A stretch of DNA of 63,676 bases, the filler included, from Actinobacteria bacterium UBA7524 (GTDB lineage Bacteria > Actinomycetota > Coriobacteriia > Anaerosomatales > UBA912), in assembly GCA_002478275.1 (NCBI GenBank). It is 7 parts of 6 records of this genome, joined end to end, with 100 filler letters (N's around TTAATTAATTAA, not from the genome) between each part and the next. Parts side by side here need not be neighbours in the genome. Positions count along the whole stretch, not along the records: positions 54,364 to 59,883 come from DLMY01000018.1; 6 more parts are not named here. The stretch is one strand, 5' to 3'. Both the position numbers and the translations under genes were made by a program. Positions within the stretch are counted from its first letter, which is position 1; every line of letters begins with the position of its first letter. This document shows positions 8,472-60,036 of the stretch, one piece after another. The notes beneath the pieces were generated by a model. The model was not told the origin of the DNA, searched no databases, and saw nothing but the letters and a program-made list of their open reading frames with translations.

Positions 8472-8515
8472 NNNNNNNNNNNNNNNNNNNNNNNNNNNNN
8501 NNNNNNNNNNNNNNN

Positions 8516-8527
8516 TTAATTAATTAA
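8516..8527. other. Artificial scaffold linker TTAATTAATTAA (also at 11465, 37320, 49126, 54308 and 59928)
   Basis: Identical six-frame-stop 12-mer embedded in N runs at six positions. Confidence 0.97.
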
Positions 8528-8571
8528 NNNNNNNNNNNNNNNNNNNNNNNNNNNNNNNNNNNNNNNNNNNN

Positions 8572-10307: not shown

Positions 10308-11420
10308 ATGGGCAGTCCGCGATGCGTTCGGCGTGCCGCGCTCGCAGTGGTCGCGTGGACCACTATTCTACTTCTCGTGCCCTCGCTGGTGCATGCTGCA
10401 GGTGATCCGGCTGCGAATGCCGACTGCTTGACGTGCCATGCCGCCAAGACCGATTTCTCCGTAACCCCTGTCGACCGCGATGCCGTCTGCATCAAGTGCC
10501 ACCTTCCCGGCTTCGTCTTCACCCATCCTTACCACCAGATCGGCTCCACGTGCGGCGCGATGTGTCATCCCGGCTGGGGCGACACGCTCATGTTCGCGGT
10601 GCCCTCGCATACCGATCCCTCATCGGGCGCCGCGTTCGCTACCGAGTTTTCGAAAGACACCCACTCGTCTCTGATCCACATCATCCACTCCAAGCCCCGC
10701 TGGCCGGGCGGCGTGGACACGTCAGTGAGCGCGTGTTCGAGNNNNNNNNNNNNNNNNNNNNNNNNNNNNNNNNNNNNNNNNNNNNNNNNNNNNNNNNNNN
10801 NNNNNNNNNNNNNNNNNNNNNNNNNNNNNNNNNNNNNNNNNNNNNNNNNNNNNNNNNNNNNNNNNNNNNNNNNNNNNNNNNNNNNNNNNNNNNNNNNNNN
10901 NNNNNNNNNNNNNNNNNNNNNNNNNNNNNNNNNNNNNNNNNNNNNNNNNNNNNNNNNNNNNNNNNNNNNNNNNNAACTCGCTGCGGACCGGCGGACGCTA
11001 CAGCTACTCGAGCCAGGCGGGCGCCACTATGAAGATCGCCTTCACTGGTACGCGCGTCGAGCTCGTCGCCGACAAGGACCCCTACCGGGGACGTGCGCAG
11101 GTCTTCATCGATAGCGAGCCCACCCCCAGGACGACGATAGACCTGTACTCGCCATCGACCACTGTTCAGGTGGTGGTGTTCGCTGCTGACGATCTTGGTC
11201 CCGGCGAGCACACGATAACGGTGAAAGTCCTCGGCCAGAAGAGTTCCGCGTCGCGTTCGACGATGGTGCTGGTCGACGGTTTCCGGGTCTACTCCGAGCT
11301 TCCTGAGTCGATCACGCCCGACTGTGTGAGCTGCCATGATTCGCACGGCAGCTTCGACCACGAGGCATCCCAGACGGTCGGCGTCTACCCCGGACCCGCT
11401 CCCGACTACGCGTGCACGAC
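10308..11420 (+). CDS. Secreted multiheme cytochrome c with an inserted beta-sandwich (CBM-like) domain; internal gap, 3' truncated
   Basis: Signal peptide; CLTCH, CIKCH, CGAMCH, an ACS.. motif running into the gap, then FTGTRVELVADKDPYRGRAQVFID, CVSCH and YACT.. at the scaffold end. Confidence 0.8.
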
Positions 11421-11520
11421 NNNNNNNNNNNNNNNNNNNNNNNNNNNNNNNNNNNNNNNNNNNNTTAATTAATTAANNNNNNNNNNNNNNNNNNNNNNNN
11501 NNNNNNNNNNNNNNNNNNNN

Positions 11521-22286: not shown

Positions 22287-22417
22287 CCCTCATCTTCCAG
22301 GCTCACGCCTGCCGAGATTTGGCACCATACGCTGTTTTCGGCGCTGGTTGCCGGGGTTTCACAGGGCTCGGTCCCTCGACCCACTGCGGTCGACATTCGA
22401 CCGCCTCTTGATGAGAA
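22287..22417 (-). ncRNA. SAM-I (S-box) riboswitch upstream of metK
   Basis: Minus strand CUCAUCAAGAG...GAGGGAC..GCCC.UGAAACCCCGGCAACC...GGUGCCAAAUC...GGAAGAUGAG; carries an extra hairpin. Confidence 0.92.
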
Positions 22418-33697: not shown

Positions 33698-33773
33698 TGG
33701 GGTGTGGTGTAACTGGCAACACGTCGGATTCTGGTTCCGAAGAGTCTAGGTTCGAGCCCTAGCACCCCAGCCA
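33698..33773 (+). tRNA. tRNA-Gln(CTG)
   Basis: Cloverleaf TGGGGTG...CACCCCAGCCA; anticodon arm TCGGA-TTCTGGT-TCCGA; GGTTCGAG T-loop. Confidence 0.96.
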
Positions 33774-33778
33774 GACGC

Positions 33779-33854
33779 GGCCCGTTCGTCTAGCGGCCTA
33801 GGACACCGCCCTCTCAAGGCGGAGGCACGGGTTCGAACCCCGTACGGGCTACCA
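33779..33854 (+). tRNA. tRNA-Glu(CTC)
   Basis: GGCCCGT...ACGGGCTACCA; anticodon arm CCGCC-CTCTCAA-GGCGG. Confidence 0.96.
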
Positions 33855-33864
33855 CGAGTCTCAC

Positions 33865-33900
33865 GAAACCGTCCCGGTCCGGGGCGGTTTCGCTCGTTTA
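33865..33900 (+). terminator. Terminator after the tRNA pair
   Basis: CGAAACCGTCCCGG/CCGGGGCGGTTTCG hairpin followed by a T-rich tail. Confidence 0.65.
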
Positions 33901-33938
33901 CGGCACTCCTCGGCATACGACCTGCTAGACTATCGTGT

Positions 33939-34286
33939 GGAGTGGGTCAGGCGATCGCGCGTGTCGAGCGTAGGCACGTGAGGAAAGTCCGGACTCCACA
34001 GGGCAGGGTGCCTGCTAACGGCAGGGCGGGGCGACCCGACGGAAAGTGCCACAGAAAAGAAGACTCCACAGGCGGAGACGTCTGCGGAAAAGCTGAAACG
34101 GTGCGGTAAGAGCGCACCAGCGTCGCGGTGACGCGGCGGCTTGGCAAACCCCACCCGGAGCAAGGGCATATAGGAGCGGTCAAGGCTGGCCCGGCCGGCG
34201 CTCGGGTAGCCCGCACGAGGTCATCGGCGACGGTGGTCCCAGATAAATGATCGTCCGCGACAGAATCCGGCTTATCGACCCACTCC
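33939..34286 (+). ncRNA. rnpB: RNase P RNA (bacterial type A)
   Basis: GAGGAAAGTCCGGACTCC, GGAAAGTGCCACAGAAA and ACAGAATCCGGCTTA; P1 GGAGTGGGTC/GACCCACTCC. Confidence 0.97.
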
Positions 34287-34300
34287 CACCGGACACGAGA

Positions 34301-37275: not shown

Positions 37276-37375
37276 NNNNNNNNNNNNNNNNNNNNNNNNN
37301 NNNNNNNNNNNNNNNNNNNTTAATTAATTAANNNNNNNNNNNNNNNNNNNNNNNNNNNNNNNNNNNNNNNNNNNN

Positions 37376-39607: not shown

Positions 39608-39682
39608 TGGTGGGCGATACTGGATTTGAACCAGTGACTTCTACCGTGTGAAGGTAGCACTCTCCCGCTGAGTTAATCGCCC
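39608..39682 (-). tRNA. tRNA-Val(CAC)
   Basis: Minus strand GGGCGAT...ATCGCCCACCA; anticodon arm CTACC-TTCACAC-GGTAG. Confidence 0.96.
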
Positions 39683-49081: not shown

Positions 49082-49195
49082 NNNNNNNNNNNNNNNNNNN
49101 NNNNNNNNNNNNNNNNNNNNNNNNNTTAATTAATTAANNNNNNNNNNNNNNNNNNNNNNNNNNNNNNNNNNNNNNNNNNNNGTCAAGCGTCATGA

Positions 49196-54263: not shown

Positions 54264-54363
54264 NNNNNNNNNNNNNNNNNNNNNNNNNNNNNNNNNNNNN
54301 NNNNNNNTTAATTAATTAANNNNNNNNNNNNNNNNNNNNNNNNNNNNNNNNNNNNNNNNNNNN

Positions 54364-55330
54364 TGCGGATCTGGCTGCCGAAGGTGATGTCCTTCTTCTC
54401 GCCGCGAAGCGCGTCGAGTTCCTCGCGGCGCTTCTGCTCTTCGAGCTCGTAGAGGCGCGAGCGCAGGATCGTCATCGCGGTCTCTTTGTTCTTGATCTGG
54501 CTCTTCTCGTTCTGGCAGGTCACAACGATGCCTGTCGGGATGTGCGTGATGCGCACCGCCGAGTCGGTGGTGTTGACCGACTGCCCGCCGGGGCCGCTCG
54601 AGCGGTAGACGTCGATGCGCAGGTCCTCGTCGCGCATGTCGACCTCGATGTCTTGCGGCAACACGGGCAGGACCTCGACACCGGCGAAGGTGGTCTGGCG
54701 GCGCTTCTTCTCGTCGGTCGGGCTGATGCGCACGAGACGATGCACGCCCGCTTCCGAGGAGAGCATGCCGTAGGCGTTACGGCCATGCACGGTGAAGACC
54801 GCCCGGTCGATGCCGAGCTCCACACCTTCCGGCGCGTCGTGGATGTCGATCTTCCAGCGCTTGGACTCCGCGTACTTCGAGTACATCTTGAGCAGCATCT
54901 CGGTCCAGTCCTGCGCTTCAAGCCCGCCCTGGCCGGGCAGGATCGTGAGAATCGCATCACCGGCGTCGAACTCGCCGGAGAACCACGTGTCGACCTCGAG
55001 TGCGTCCAGGCTCTTGGCGAGAGCCGTGAGGGAGGAAGCGACCTCCTCGGCCATGCTCTCGTCGTTCTCGGAGAGCGCGAGCTCGTTGGCCACCTCGACG
55101 TCCTCGATGGTCGCGCGCGCCGATTCGTAGTTCGCGATCTCGTCTTTGAGCGCCGAAAGCCTCGCCATCGCCGTCTGCGCGGTCTGCTGGTCGTCCCAGA
55201 ATCCAGGCGCGCCGGACGCCTCCTCGAGCGAGGCTATCTCGGTTCGCTTGGCATCAAGGTGCAGGTACTCGGCCATGCGCTCGATGCGCTTGGCGAACGC
55301 CTGGATGTCGTTGGTGCGATCTTGGATCAT
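54364..55330 (-). CDS. prfB: Peptide chain release factor 2, 3' truncated
   Basis: [21 protein letters not shown] and [17 protein letters not shown]; continuous frame with no +1 frameshift. Confidence 0.95.
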
Positions 55331-55536
55331 GGTGCTCTCTGGCGCACTTGGCGCGGGCCGGGACGGTACAGGGCACACGGATTGTAGCACGCATGCGGGG
55401 GCGGTAGCGGGGAGGCCCGAACGTGGCGTGATGAGCTGCGATGGGCATCAACTACGTAGCTTTCGCGCAGTGCGCGTCAGGGGGCGGATGTTCGTTCGAT
55501 GTGGGTCGCGTGCGCGGGGACAGGAGGCCGATACGG

Positions 55537-56346
55537 GTGAGCAGGCGTGGGCCGACATTCGCGCTGGTATGCGCTGTGGCGTGCGCGCTGCTGACGCTCG
55601 TGTGCGCGACCGGGTGCCGGGATAGCGAGGACGCGAGCGGTGAGGGCGGGATCAGCATCGCCGAGGAGACCGTGACGGCCGTGGGAGCGGGCGCGGATGC
55701 GAGCGCGGACAGCACAGCGGTGCTCGCGCTCGGCGTCGAGGCGATCGACTTCGGCAGGATCGCGCAGGACGAGGTGGTCGAGAGCCGGGTGATCGTCACG
55801 AACGTCGGCGACGGGGATCTGGTGATCTCGCGCGTCAGCTCGAATTGAGGTTGCCTCACCGGGCTGGTCAGCACCACGACAGTGCCGCCGGGCGAAACGG
55901 CGGATCTCGAGCTTGCGCTCGATCCTGCCGGCAAGTTCGGCGAGACGACCAAACTGCTGAAGGTGTACTCGAACGACCCTGCCTCCCCGGTCACGGAGTT
56001 GCCCGTCCGAGCGATGGTGCTGCACGGCGTCGACCCGGGCTCGACGCTGTCGGTGGAGGAGGCGCTGTTCGGCCAGGCCCAGTGCGCACGCTGTCACTCG
56101 GCGCCGGCCCGCGACCTGACCGGTGAAGCGCTGTACGAAGCCGTGTGCGAGATGTGCCACGGGCCGCTGGCACAGTACGCGCAATCGATCCCTGTCGATC
56201 GTCGCTCGCGCGAAGCGCTTCACCGATGGACAGCGTACGGACAGGACGGCACGAGCATGCCGGGTTACCTCTACGCGCACGGGGGACCGCTCTCCTCGGC
56301 ACAGGTCGAATCGCTGGTGACACTTATGAGTGGTGTGGTGGAGTGA
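55537..56346 (+). CDS. Predicted selenoprotein: DUF1573-like Ig domain (U-G-C motif) fused to a di-heme cytochrome c, lipoprotein
   Basis: AGGAGG plus GTG at 55537; lipobox ATGC; IDFG.I...VTNVGDGDLVISRVSSN-TGA-GC continues in frame to CARCH, CEMCH and MPGY. Confidence 0.8.
55861..55875 (+). promoter_or_regulatory. Bacterial SECIS-like hairpin
   Basis: GG-GCUG-GU-CAGC-A-CC starts 12 nt after the in-frame UGA (55846-55848); same layout as the E. coli fdhF SECIS upper stem. Confidence 0.65.
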
Positions 56347-56356
56347 GGGGTTGCCC

Positions 56357-59300
56357 TCACTCCACGAGCTTAGCCACCTCGTCTCGCACTCCCTGACTCA
56401 CGGCTGCCGTGCCGCCGATGAAGTACACGGAGTGTATGTCTGCCTTGTGCGTGGTCAGCCGCGTGCGTGCGACCTCGACCAGGCTCGTCTGCTTGGTCAG
56501 CAGCAACACGGAGCCGGCGCGTCCGAGCATCGCCCCTCCGGACAGCGCATCGGGAAACGCCATGCCTGTGGCGATGCCCACGCCGTCCCAGTGCATGCCG
56601 AGTCCAACGCCGTGATCGGCGATCTTGGCCGCCGTGTCGTAGCGGTCCTTGCCACCCACACGCACGACGTTGGCCGAGCCCAGTGCGGTGCGCACCGCCG
56701 ACTCGGTCGCAGGTGTCACGGCCGCCTCGCCGCCCAGGATCGTGGCGCGCTTGACCGCTGTGGGCAGGTAGGGCGCCGCATCGGGCTTGGCGAGCAGTAT
56801 CGGACGTGCCGAGGACGCGGCGAGCGGTGAGGCTCCAAGTGCATCGGGGAAGTTGGCCCCGGTGGCCACGAACGCGTCACCGGAGTAGCCGCCGCCCTTG
56901 ATGCGGATGACCTCGTCGGCGACCTTGTTGGCCGTGGCGTAACGAGTGGGACCGAAGATGCGGGTCACCTTGCCGCTGAGCTTGGCATCCAGGCTGTCTT
57001 GGACCTGCTGGGAGACGGCCGCGGTGCCACCGAGCACGTAGGCGTCGGTAGCGCCGAGACGGGTGAGCTCGGTGACGACCGCATCAGGCAGCGAGGTCGG
57101 CTTGACGAGCAGGAGCGGACCGTCCACAGCACCGGCCAGCGCCGAGCCGCCAAGGGCGTCGGGCCAGTTGGCGCCCGTGGCGATGACCACGGTGGAAGCA
57201 CCGGCGGGATAGGCCTCCTTGGAGGCTTCGACCGCCGTCTTGTAGCGGTCAGCGCCCGCGATGGGCACGAACTCGCACGGCGCGGCGGTGACCGTGAACT
57301 GCCTGGTGCGCGTACCAGCATCTCCGTCCTTGTCGGTCACCGTGCAGGTGACCGTGTACGTGCCGGCGGCGGCGTAGGTGTGAGAGCCGGTCACCGTGCC
57401 GTTGCCGCCAGCCTCGCTGACCGCCCCGGCTCCGCTCGTACCGTCACCCCAGGTCCACTGTGCCGTGTGTGTGTCGAGACTACCCGGATCCGTGAACGGA
57501 GCGGAGAACTGGACGAGCGTACCGGCCACAGGGGCCGGGTCCGACATGACGACAGGCGAGACCGTCGGCTTGACGTTGGTGACCGTGACTTGTATCGAGT
57601 CGGTGCCGGTGCCGCCGTCGTCATCCGCGACCGTGACGGTGACGGTGTAGGTGCCGTCGTCGGCGTAGGTGTGGGATGGCTGCACGTTGCCCGAGGTCTC
57701 CTCGGCAGGGCGGATCGGTTCGGACTTCGACTCTTCGCTGCCGTCACCCCAGTCGACCGTGACGGTATGGGTGTCTTCCAGGCCCTGATCGCCGAACTCC
57801 ACGTCCAGGGTGAGTTGCGAGCCTTCGGTTGCGGCGTCTGGGGGCACGACGACTACCCGGGGCTCGGAGTTCGCGACGGTGACGGTCGCCGTGTCTTCGT
57901 GAGTCAGGCCGCCATCATCGGTGACGCGCAGGCGGATCTCATACTCTCCGTCGTCTGGGAACGTCACTTCAGTGACCTCTCCAGAGGCGTCATCGAACTG
58001 GCCGTCGCCATCCAGGTCCCACTCCCAGGACTCTATCCAGCCCCCGGGTTCGTTCGGGTCGCTTGATGCGGACCCGTCAATCTCGACAGCGGCCCCCTCC
58101 GTCGCGAAGTAGGGTCCCCCAGCATCCGCTACGGGTGGCGTGTTGAGCACCGTGACAGCAAGCGAGCGCACGTTGTTGGCCTCGTTGCTCTCGTCGACCA
58201 CATCAGGCGCGTCTGCAACAGCAAGCAAGTGATACTCCCCGGGAGGAACTGTGGCAGGCACCGTCAGCGTCGTGCTCCGCGAGCTAACTGCGGTGTCAGG
58301 CGCCGTGGAATGGGGGGTCAAAGCAGGCAGACTGCGGGTTCCCAGCAGCAGGTCATCGCTCTCATCGAAGAGGGTGTCCTCGGACAGGTAGAACGCGACT
58401 GTCGTCTCCGAGCTCATTGAACCGCCGGTATTCACGAAGGTATCGTCATACCGGTAGCTCTGTCCCACCTCGACTGGCCCAAACCCGACCAGCGCCGAAG
58501 CGACAAGGTCGGGCTTGCCGATAACCACCGCCTGGATCGTATGGGTGTTGTTTCCCTCATTCGACTCATCGACGACGTCTGCGGCATCGACCTCGAGAAG
58601 CAGGTAGTAGATGCCCGGAGGTGCTGCAACCGGCAACTGAGCATAGAAGAGCGGGGACGTACTCGACTGCTGATTGACCAAGGGCAATGCGTGGTCATAC
58701 AACACCACGTCATCGACATCCACAAGCGTGTCAGCGGAAAGGTACAGCCGCAACGTACAGGCCTGCGATTGCGAGCCGCCGTTGTTGTTTACCGTGGGGT
58801 ACACGTAGAAGATCCCACCAGCGACGCTCCCGGCGTCCGAAGAAGCGCCTGTGATCCTCAAGTCGGGCTTGGAGATCGTGACGGGCGACGAAATGACGTA
58901 GACGTTGTTGCTTTCGTTCGACTCGTCTACGACGTTTAACACATCGATCTCAAGGATAAGGTAGTAAGTTCCTGGAGCTGTTGCCACGGGTATCGATGCC
59001 GAGTAGCCTGGATACACAGAGGACTGAGCGTACAACGACGTGAAGGAGTAGTCGCCCAGTACAGTGTCACCTGCATCGACGATCCCGTCGGTTGACAGGT
59101 AGAGCCTCAACGTACACGGACCCGACGTGGAGCCGCCGTTGTTGTTTATTGTGGCTCCGACGGTGAAGCTGGTACCAGCGATGCTACCAGCGTTCGAAGA
59201 ACCGGCTGTTATCCTCAAGTCAGGCTTTCCGATGACCATGGCACCGGAGCTACGGGTGTTGTTGGATTCGTTGCTTTCCGCGACGCTGTTGGTTATATCC

Positions 59301-59683
59301 GCTACCACTATGATGTAGTACGTCCCCGCCGAAGTGGCTACACCGATGTTCACCGTGGTGTTCTCTGTAGTTGTTCCCCCGGCTGCAAGCGAACCGACCA
59401 CCCTTGTTGCCAGCAGCTGGTCACCCCCATCGAAAACAGTGTCGGCGGAAAGGTACAGACCCACCAGGAACCCCCCGGTAGGTGTGTCTCCCTGGTTGTA
59501 CACTTGGTTGCCGACCGTGATCGACTGGCCGGCATAGCAGGTCGGAGGTATGGCGACCTGTGTCACCACCAGATCAGGCCCTACGGCCGCTGAGGCCTCC
59601 TGCGTAGGCGCCAGCACCGCCAATGCACACAGCACGACAACGACCAGCGCATAGCAATAGATCGTACGCGACTGCTTGACCAT
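56357..59683 (-). CDS. Cell-surface protein with 4 CARDB, 3 PKD and 3 cell_wall_binding_2 repeats
   Basis: Signal peptide; PDL...YLS.D...GTYY....D....V.ESNE.NN x4; PKD VDWGDG/HTYADDG; IAGADRYKTA, ATGANWPDAL and ATGANFPDAL. Confidence 0.9.
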   Translation of the reverse strand: MVKQSRTIYCYALVVVVLCALAVLAPTQEASAAVGPDLVVTQVAIPPTCYAGQSITVGNQVYNQGDTPTGGFLVGLYLSADTVFDGGDQLLATRVVGSLAAGGTTTENTTVNIGVATSAGTYYIIVVADITNSVAESNESNNTRSSGAMVIGKPDLRITAGSSNAGSIAGTSFTVGATINNNGGSTSGPCTLRLYLSTDGIVDAGDTVLGDYSFTSLYAQSSVYPGYSASIPVATAPGTYYLILEIDVLNVVDESNESNNVYVISSPVTISKPDLRITGASSDAGSVAGGIFYVYPTVNNNGGSQSQACTLRLYLSADTLVDVDDVVLYDHALPLVNQQSSTSPLFYAQLPVAAPPGIYYLLLEVDAADVVDESNEGNNTHTIQAVVIGKPDLVASALVGFGPVEVGQSYRYDDTFVNTGGSMSSETTVAFYLSEDTLFDESDDLLLGTRSLPALTPHSTAPDTAVSSRSTTLTVPATVPPGEYHLLAVADAPDVVDESNEANNVRSLAVTVLNTPPVADAGGPYFATEGAAVEIDGSASSDPNEPGGWIESWEWDLDGDGQFDDASGEVTEVTFPDDGEYEIRLRVTDDGGLTHEDTATVTVANSEPRVVVVPPDAATEGSQLTLDVEFGDQGLEDTHTVTVDWGDGSEESKSEPIRPAEETSGNVQPSHTYADDGTYTVTVTVADDDGGTGTDSIQVTVTNVKPTVSPVVMSDPAPVAGTLVQFSAPFTDPGSLDTHTAQWTWGDGTSGAGAVSEAGGNGTVTGSHTYAAAGTYTVTCTVTDKDGDAGTRTRQFTVTAAPCEFVPIAGADRYKTAVEASKEAYPAGASTVVIATGANWPDALGGSALAGAVDGPLLLVKPTSLPDAVVTELTRLGATDAYVLGGTAAVSQQVQDSLDAKLSGKVTRIFGPTRYATANKVADEVIRIKGGGYSGDAFVATGANFPDALGASPLAASSARPILLAKPDAAPYLPTAVKRATILGGEAAVTPATESAVRTALGSANVVRVGGKDRYDTAAKIADHGVGLGMHWDGVGIATGMAFPDALSGGAMLGRAGSVLLLTKQTSLVEVARTRLTTHKADIHSVYFIGGTAAVSQGVRDEVAKLVE

Positions 59684-59744
59684 CCTAGGCTCCCTCCCAC
59701 TTGCGAGCTTCTCTGCCCGCCCCAGCCCCGACGCCAGCCTGTCG

Positions 59745-59778
59745 AAAGCAAAGGCCGACCCTTGGCAACGGATCGGCC
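59745..59778 (-). terminator. Intrinsic terminator ~60 nt upstream of the CWB2 gene start
   Basis: Minus strand GGCCGAUCC-GUUGCCAA-GGGUCGGCC followed by UUUGCUUU. Confidence 0.6.
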
Positions 59779-60036
59779 CCCAGACATGCGATGGAAGAAG
59801 CGAACGAAGCATCTCCCCCGCGGCATCGTCACTCCCCGTGCCCCGGCCACTCACGAACACTTGCGTGCTGGCAGGTTCATTGTNNNNNNNNNNNNNNNNN
59901 NNNNNNNNNNNNNNNNNNNNNNNNNNNTTAATTAATTAANNNNNNNNNNNNNNNNNNNNNNNNNNNNNNNNNNNNNNNNNNNNACCACTACCGGGGACGT
60001 TAACAGAGCACGTTACCTCGAGCTACTCGTTGGGTC

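Follow-up and report, generated by a model that had tools for sequence, protein, structure and literature searches.

The window, the whole stretch of 63,676 nucleotides analysed here, comes from the genome of Actinobacteria bacterium UBA7524 (source assembly GCA_002478275.1, G000 below). At 55537..56346 on its + strand lies a gene of 269 codons plus the stop TGA (56344-56346), and the full-length alignment of orthologues supports these limits. One further TGA interrupts the frame and is read here as selenocysteine (Sec, U). We consider it very likely that this DNA encodes a single exported selenoprotein in which a U-G-C site is joined to a two-haem cytochrome c. The gene occupies a 5.5-kb contig (C5); the assembly as a whole comprises 60 contigs totalling 1.81 Mb (83% complete, 63% G+C). 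Coordinates refer to the whole stretch and residues are numbered from the GTG at 55537, except where the numbering of P0001 is given, in which the selenocysteine is residue 136. The relatives named below are G014, G226, G245 and G142, of the same order, G001, of the same family, and G002.

The open reading frames (ORFs) 55441..55848 and 55882..56346 share a frame, and the sole interruption is the TGA at 55846-55848. With this codon read as U there is one product, with the context VSSN-U-GCLT. A preliminary description of this DNA had reported the two frames separated by TGA in the context VSSN-TGA-GCLT, and all of these elements lie where it placed them. The likely start is the GTG at 55537, nine nucleotides downstream of a Shine-Dalgarno-like AGGAGG read directly from the sequence (55522..55527, + strand). 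The U-G-C motif at 55846..55854 (+) comprises Sec104, Gly105 and Cys106, and corresponds to a column that holds TGA or Cys in homologues. The Sec codon can also pair within a mini-hairpin of 5 bp, UGAGG-UUG-CCUCA (55846-55858), similar in sequence to the repeat that covers the genuine stop codon; it is not common to the orthologues and is probably a coincidence.

Gene callers have very probably cut the gene in two. The public protein collection holds it only as the C-terminal ORF of 154 amino acids (P0019), the kind of split that had been expected of automatic annotation. A second entry, P0020 (163 amino acids, 60% identical), starts two residues past the position of U-G-C and, judged by its sequence, probably represents a further Sec form that has been split. 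A search of sequencing runs listed one DNA run, X1, and no RNA run; the single Logan contig obtained from X1 is identical across the whole gene at depth 20. This run is probably the source sample, so the agreement is not independent. The preliminary description had allowed that position 55846 might turn out to read TGC or TGT; this second assembly has TGA.

Domain organisation and haem sites

The N-terminal segment (55537..55617, +) resembles a signal peptide, with two arginines, a hydrophobic stretch and a lipobox-like A-T-G-C ending at a candidate lipidated Cys27 (55615-55617). The lipobox pattern is [LVI][ASTVI][GAS]C. The orthologue in G245 has the canonical L-V-G-C, that in G226 has A-M-A-C / C-G-G-C, and a lipid anchor is probable for the protein described here.

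The leader is followed by a DUF1573 domain (PF07610), an immunoglobulin (Ig)-like or PapD-like β-sandwich encoded by 55738..55992 (+), identified by Pfam (65.8 bits, cut-off 26.1), by an AlphaFold2 model and by fold comparison. The Pfam match has an E value of 3.7e-18 and spans residues 100-184 of P0001, with U136 inside it. Since the match runs across the TGA, one gene is indicated and not two. The model, computed from a 38-sequence alignment, has a mean predicted local distance difference test score (pLDDT) of 86.2 and a predicted template modelling score of 0.65. It places an eight-stranded sandwich (block-mean pLDDT 87-98) ahead of a cytochrome module made of helices, and the turn linking model strands 69-76 and 81-85 carries U-G-C. 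Foldseek places the sandwich among PapD-like and HYDIN-type Ig domains, the best match being PDB entry 2qsv, a Porphyromonas gingivalis protein of unknown function. This nearest solved chain, aligned over the Ig domain, carries no C-x-C at the place of the motif and is therefore silent on the U-G-C site.

The C-terminal half contains a class I cytochrome c module, assigned to Cytochrome_CBB3 (PF13442; 56116..56322, +; 29.9 bits against a cut-off of 27), which covers residues 226-294 of P0001. PF00034 is also matched (22.5 bits, cut-off 21.3), and a search of the PDB with the family profile brings up chains of CcoP and cytochrome c6. There are two CxxCH motifs. The second, C-E-M-C-H (56146..56160, +), aligns in Pfam with the class I haem site and ends model helix 170-182. 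The first, C-A-R-C-H (56083..56097, +), lies 21 residues before it, close to the domain junction and N-terminal to the class I fold, as an extra motif on model helix 155-161. The sequence M-P-G-Y follows at 56257..56268 (+); its Met241, placed by the model in a loop ahead of the C-terminal helix, probably serves as sixth ligand to the canonical haem. The two CxxCH motifs are preserved in every one of the 38 aligned sequences, as are the methionine and proline of M-P-G. The motifs CARCH, CEMCH and MPGY, and the overall layout of an Ig-like domain followed by a cytochrome c with two haem-binding motifs, had been noted in the preliminary description, which is borne out on both.

Other residues may complete the first site. 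His163 (56023..56025, +), where the Ig domain ends, is shared by all four Sec forms but is not invariant in the 38-sequence alignment; by inference only, it is a candidate distal ligand for the first haem. The clade of Verrucomicrobiota/Acidobacteriota type has a histidine and a methionine just past the second CxxCH. Beyond the CxxCH residues and Met241, the only potential haem ligands that are invariant in the 38 sequences are the two cysteines of C-x-C. Five CcsA/ResC-type genes (PF01578) score above the cut-off in G000, and attachment of haem c is therefore available. From the motifs, binding of at least one haem can be predicted with little doubt, and binding of two is likely.

Orthologues and the Sec/Cys column

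Relatives were sought by stop-tolerant translation, in 41 relatives and then in 401 genomes of the class. The gene is present in five of the 401, all from one order, and each copy has a single internal TGA. In G014, G226 and G245 this TGA falls at the G000 column, within U-G-C. The three products are 43-44% identical to that of G000 over the whole length, 38-42% in the 40 columns before U and 45-48% past it, so that similarity continues on both sides of the codon. Two of the copies have peculiarities of their own. That of G142 (L042, G142:C65 100-510, - strand) keeps TGA-GGA-TGC, has lost the N-terminal Ig half and the hairpin motif discussed below, and reads C-Q-M-C-R at the second CxxCH, without the histidine; from its sequence it looks decayed. 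In G014 the N-terminus of the DUF1573-cytochrome orthologue is out of frame, and a frameshift also breaks selD (L023, G014:C1:593911-597054). This genome is in three contigs with a marker completeness of only 51%, and we suspect a long-read assembly with many frameshift errors.

Beyond the Sec forms, cysteine takes the place of selenocysteine. Metagenomes gave 35 loci, comprising 24 with C-G-C, six with C-F-C, three Sec forms (L043-L045, near G245 and with the same TGA column) and two that preserve the cytochrome part only. A scan of genomes in which the query was the alignment of the four orthologues gave 22 loci; 18 are Cys forms, three are the Sec genomes again (same contigs and coordinates) and one is a spurious match of 29 residues. 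With a single protein as query, no relative was found in the genome contig collection. The Cys forms from genomes are labelled Acidobacteriota, Zetaproteobacteria/Mariprofundaceae or Verrucomicrobiota, apart from a few oddly labelled metagenome-assembled genomes. All 11 full-length database proteins have Cys at the Sec column, as does every Cys-type homologue examined (11 proteins, 30 metagenome loci and 18 genome loci, counts that are not de-duplicated across the three collections). The preliminary description had proposed a search for alternation of Cys and UGA at this column, and had named any other residue there as evidence to the contrary. The alternation is found, with TGA in G000, G014, G226, G245, three metagenome contigs and the decayed G142 copy, and with Cys elsewhere; none of the Cys-type homologues examined has another residue. 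When the 38 aligned sequences are placed in a maximum-likelihood tree, the five Sec rows group together on a single branch (support 99/98), although long branches leave its placement among the Cys forms unsettled.

A hairpin downstream of the UGA

Twelve nucleotides past the TGA, at 55861-55875 (+), the sequence GGGCUGGUCAGCACC forms a candidate bacterial Sec insertion sequence (SECIS) hairpin. GGGCU on the 5′ side pairs through 5 bp with AGC, a bulged A and CC on the 3′ side, and the loop is GGUC (55866-55869), at +21 to +24 from the U of UGA. The hairpin had been proposed at this distance in the preliminary description, and the sequence is there; the two-nucleotide GU loop drawn at the time is impossible, and the loop is GGUC.

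Conservation singles out this element. The 10-nucleotide run GCUGGUCAGC, 15 nucleotides past the UGA, is invariant in the four intact orthologues, and in their gap-free codon alignment of 660 nucleotides (224 of 660 positions invariant) it is the only invariant run of at least seven. Where an invariant residue has four or six synonymous codons, all four sequences use the same one at three of three positions in the hairpin and at four of 39 elsewhere. A stem of seven pairs around GGUC is paired in 85.7% of its cells; shifting the partners by one to three columns lowers this to 18-46%. Across the four orthologues three pairs of the lower stem have changes on both sides, that is, compensatory ones. 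No such motif occurs at this place in 24 metagenome and 18 genome Cys forms. The selD fragment of G000, described below, has a hairpin loop at +20 to +24 past its own UGA.

The element is like the SECIS of Escherichia coli fdhF in being a small stem-loop just past the UGA with an apical GGUC loop. The fdhF hairpin had been said to start 11 nucleotides past its UGA, and the K-12 record confirms a stem-loop of 17 nucleotides there. Its loop falls at +22 to +25, so that the loop in G000 is one base nearer the UGA. Over 13 nucleotides around the loop, 11 are identical in fdhF and G000 and the other two constitute a swapped pair, A-U for U-A. The stems differ in their bulges, a U on the 5′ side in fdhF and an A on the 3′ side in G000, whereas the orthologues have a continuous stem of 7 bp. 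Given the TGA/Cys column and this hairpin, insertion of Sec at the UGA at 55846 is predicted with high confidence.

Selenocysteine machinery and genetic code

The last 192 bases of contig C37 of G000 (C37:55908-56099; L010 1489-1700) carry 70 codons from the N-terminal end of selD, in which the catalytic S-K-A-G-U-A-A-K contains an in-frame TGA. As this SelD itself needs Sec insertion, the machinery is implied to be present in G000. In G014 the gene order is selD(U), a small gene, selA and selB, with tRNA-Sec slightly further on, all above the cut-off; by that order, the genes missing from G000 would lie just past the end of C37. Across the order, selD is above the cut-off in 36 of 41 genomes, and 33 of the 36 have exactly one TGA. 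For carriers other than G000 and G014 the search covered selA, which is above the cut-off in G245 and G142 and is found in pieces below the cut-off in G226; selA is also above the cut-off in G002.

Just upstream of the gene, and divergent from it, lies prfB (54364..55390, - strand), which encodes release factor 2 (RF2) with PCRF and RF-1 domains (TIGR00020, 417.6 bits against 370). With RF2 encoded next door UGA is an ordinary stop in this organism, and the selenoprotein gene itself ends in TGA. The adjoining prfB also led us to discard an alternative code that would read UGA as sense. Many bacteria have a programmed +1 frameshift in prfB; here the gene (54364-55390, -) is one continuous frame with no sign of it, and its 3′ end enters a masked stretch of N.

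Several observations weigh against the interpretation of the gene as one exported selenoprotein. In the 83%-complete G000 assembly selA has no match, selB has none above the cut-off (best 143.6 bits against 242) and tRNA-Sec was not found, its best Rfam match being called tRNA-Ser by ARAGORN, whose total for the assembly is only 28 tRNA genes. The best selB match is on contig C9, where a Tyr-Thr-Met tRNA cluster lies some 400 bases upstream of it; on account of that position it is, in our own judgement, tuf. Of the four genes for which the preliminary description had advised a search, then, selD is represented by a fragment with its own TGA, and selA, selB and the tRNA (selC) were not detected. 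In G001, of the same family and 96% complete, neither selA nor selD is above the cut-off; the Sec trait can therefore be lost in this family.

The hairpin has its own weak points. Its covariation value, from four sequences only, is reached in 40 of 500 shuffled controls. Over a stretch of 27 nucleotides the hairpin of G000 (-4.5 kcal/mol) is less stable than those of the three orthologues, and the same stretch of 24 Cys forms averages -6.3 kcal/mol, which is more stable. The hairpin is missing from the minimum-energy fold of 45 nucleotides of G000, and folding z-scores of +0.31 and +0.91 are not significant; with folding of the single G000 sequence not significant, stability alone cannot carry the argument for a SECIS. 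Rfam gave no match at gathering thresholds, nor one with E ≤10 on 55700-56000, and the presence of a bacterial SECIS model in Rfam is unconfirmed. Export and function are affected by two further points. The lipobox claimed in the preliminary description survives as a lipobox-like A-T-G-C at the N-terminus in which positions -1 and -2 fit, but the Ala at -3 is non-canonical. Finally, no conserved operon emerged when 58 ORFs from 12 loci were compared with Pfam, which leaves no clue to the substrate.

Relationship to known selenoproteins

The UGC family to which the Ig-like domain is related has been in print for some years. A study of the metagenome of Olavius symbionts introduced the selenoprotein family OS_HP2 (PMC1976440, Zhang and Gladyshev 2007), which, as pfam07610 with a UxC motif, was represented in the GOS data by two Sec and 354 Cys sequences (PMC2398784, Zhang and Gladyshev 2008). 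A 'DUF1573 domain-containing protein, UGC' is listed in two reviews (PMC9312934, PMC13188914), which in the sections consulted give no cytochrome fusion. The preliminary description had called the gene a hidden selenoprotein. That is supported, with the qualification that a DUF1573 UGC family is already described in the consulted portions of these four papers (PMC2398784, PMC1976440, PMC9312934, PMC13188914).

Our protein resembles OS_HP2 (NF041425), as characterized in those accounts, in having an Ig-like DUF1573 domain with Sec first in U-x-C and Cys in most homologues. NF041425 is the nearest NCBIfam model and scores 48.1 bits, with relatives at 46-63.5, against a cut-off of 100. By sequence the protein is thus related to the curated OS_HP2 family and is not a member of it. 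OS_HP2 is presented there as a domain-only family with no function assigned, known from worm symbiont and ocean samples; the protein described here differs in its C-terminal cytochrome c module with two CxxCH motifs and its lipoprotein-type leader.

Selenocysteine has been linked to c-type cytochromes before. The consulted part of a 2026 review (PMC13188914) lists the multihaem ExtKL, a CXXCH family represented by GSU2204 and an octahaem family related to tetrathionate reductase. These likewise pair selenocysteine with covalent haem c in an exported protein. Going by their descriptions there they have unrelated folds and belong to unrelated families, and Sec in the present protein is on a separate Ig-like domain, not on a multihaem domain. 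What appears to be new is the fusion of DUF1573 UGC to a two-CxxCH cytochrome c, and its occurrence in a Coriobacteriia-like lineage; the family itself is known.

The significance of the fusion lies partly in the history of the domain. In the consulted portions of the reports the DUF1573/OS_HP2 UGC family, known since 2007, has no function assigned. Here a conserved natural fusion exists as Cys forms in genomes labelled Acidobacteriota, Zetaproteobacteria and Verrucomicrobiota and as Sec forms in one Coriobacteriia-like order. Another homologue, P0016 (409 residues), fuses DUF1573 to a rhodanese domain (PF00581). Taken together, the cytochrome and rhodanese fusions suggest that the C-x-C / U-x-C turn serves in redox reactions or in the handling of sulfur or selenium, a role that can now be tested on one small protein. 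Almost all genomes searched in this lineage have a SelD that contains Sec, and the gene gives the lineage an exported selenoprotein as well. It also provides a concrete case of a selenoprotein split by annotation pipelines, with an NCBIfam score below the cut-off and only its C-terminal half in the public collection.

Proposed role and alternative explanations

A plausible course of events can be outlined. SelB with Sec-tRNA(Sec) would be recruited by the hairpin at 55861-55875, and Sec would be inserted at residue 104. The unfolded chain would be exported and probably lipid-anchored, and would come to lie on the outer face of the cell membrane, a location suggested by the signal peptide and lipobox-like Cys in what is presumably a single-membrane, Coriobacteriia-like organism. 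System II maturation proteins would attach haem c to both CxxCH motifs outside the membrane, the second forming with Met241 a canonical class I site and the first an extra site by the domain junction. The Sec104-Gly-Cys106 turn could then cycle between a selenol/thiol pair and a selenenylsulfide ring, trading electrons with the haems, and the protein might serve as an extracytoplasmic redox enzyme or relay for a small sulfur, selenium or thiol-reactive substrate. The rhodanese fusion in P0016 fits sulfur or selenium chemistry. We advance redox cycling of U-G-C wired to the haems tentatively, as a realistic prospect that falls a little short of an even chance.

A more direct involvement of Sec in the haem chemistry, either as distal ligand of the first haem or as a SoxY-like carrier selenol, is improbable. 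SoxY bears a reactive Cys on an Ig-like domain, and the c-type haems of SoxAX/TsdA take the electrons of oxidative sulfur conjugation. The reactive Cys of SoxY is on a C-terminal arm, unlike the C-x-C turn here, and the likeness is by analogy alone; no sox genes adjoin any of the 12 loci examined. If such a mechanism did operate, a SoxY-like selenol would be oxidatively loaded with a sulfur or selenium substrate while the two haems took the electrons. In either form, as ligand or as carrier, the protein would represent a novel kind of extracytoplasmic seleno-haem enzyme and offer the first functional handle on the widespread DUF1573 C-x-C domain.

Is the U-G-C turn a redox centre, or does it bind a metal? 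Metal binding is the main rival to redox cycling. The protein would still be a selenoprotein; its U-G-C would bind a soft metal such as Cu(I), Hg(II), Zn or similar, and the haems would change the oxidation state of the metal or act as sensors. UxC or UxxC motifs occur, according to the consulted part of PMC13188914, in selenoproteins that include a Cu/Zn efflux transporter (UxC), a cation ATPase and proteins of MerP/MerT type, and a gene for a heavy-metal-associated domain lies directly upstream of the Cys-form locus L048. Such a neighbour is found at only one of 12 loci, however, the DUF1573-rhodanese homologue P0016 points to sulfur chemistry, and there are no further conserved metal ligands near the motif. 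We regard metal binding as rather unlikely.

The boldest alternative is that Sec104 or Cys106 ligates the first haem directly from the distal side, giving His/Sec ligation akin to the His/Cys haems of SoxAX/TsdA. The two cysteines of C-x-C are, as noted above, the only other family-invariant candidates for ligating haem in the 38 sequences, and in the model the first CxxCH is close to the domain junction. Against this, C-G-C DUF1573 domains exist without a cytochrome (P0013-P0018 and stand-alone OS_HP2), and the motif must therefore have a function of its own. Other ligands are also on offer, namely H163 in the Sec clade and the His and Met past the second CxxCH in the other clade. Direct ligation thus seems decidedly improbable.

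Still less credible is that the TGA is a true stop, so that the locus is a pseudogene or holds two genes, a lipoprotein fragment of 103 residues and a cytochrome of 154 residues starting at GTG 55882. It has in its favour that gene callers give exactly the 154-residue product P0019, that searches of the assembly did not detect selA, selB or tRNA-Sec, and that the G142 copy has decayed, with its N-terminal half gone and its second CxxCH lacking the His. A stop at this point would nevertheless cut the Ig domain in mid-fold. Four lineages with no more than 40-47% identity retain the TGA, and in all of them both halves are intact and every family-invariant residue is preserved; all other homologues have Cys at the column. 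Synonymous sites are conserved in the hairpin, and past the TGA neither a start codon nor a ribosome-binding site is conserved in the orthologues.

An error of sequencing or assembly for TGC/TGT, or a sense reading of UGA, is no more than a general possibility in any metagenome-assembled genome, and we give it almost no credence, as a second assembler gave an identical sequence at depth 20 (probably from the same sample), independently assembled genomes and contigs have the same TGA, RF2 is encoded next door, and translation-GTPase and CcsA-type frames are matched in G000 without internal stops.

Gene surroundings and other features of the window

The neighbours of the selenoprotein gene and its homologues differ from locus to locus and are of housekeeping type, among them prfB, trigger factor with ClpP, thymidylate kinase, cysteinyl-tRNA synthetase and GreA. 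A di-haem peroxidase gene is present at one of the 12 loci and a gene with a heavy-metal-associated domain at one. In the window, the gene converges on that of a surface protein of 1167 residues (56357-59860, - strand), whose C-terminal 494 residues contain PKD domains and three cell-wall-binding (CWB2) repeats, in keeping with a single-membrane cell envelope. A perfect inverted repeat of 10 bp with a loop of four nucleotides (56340..56363) lies over the stops of the two genes. It has no T run and was not called in a scan for consensus terminators; it may be a two-way terminator.

Runs of N are present at 381-517, 801-932, 8472-8571, 10742-10974, 11421-11520, 37276-37375, 49082-49181, 54264-54363 and 59884-59983. 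Several of them consist of 44 N, 12 bases and 44 N, and there the genome splits into separate contigs. Elsewhere in the window are an S-adenosylmethionine (SAM) riboswitch (22287-22417, - strand, 51 bits), a tRNA (39611-39682, -) and, after two tRNAs, a bacterial RNase P RNA of class A (33698-34290, +, 294 bits).

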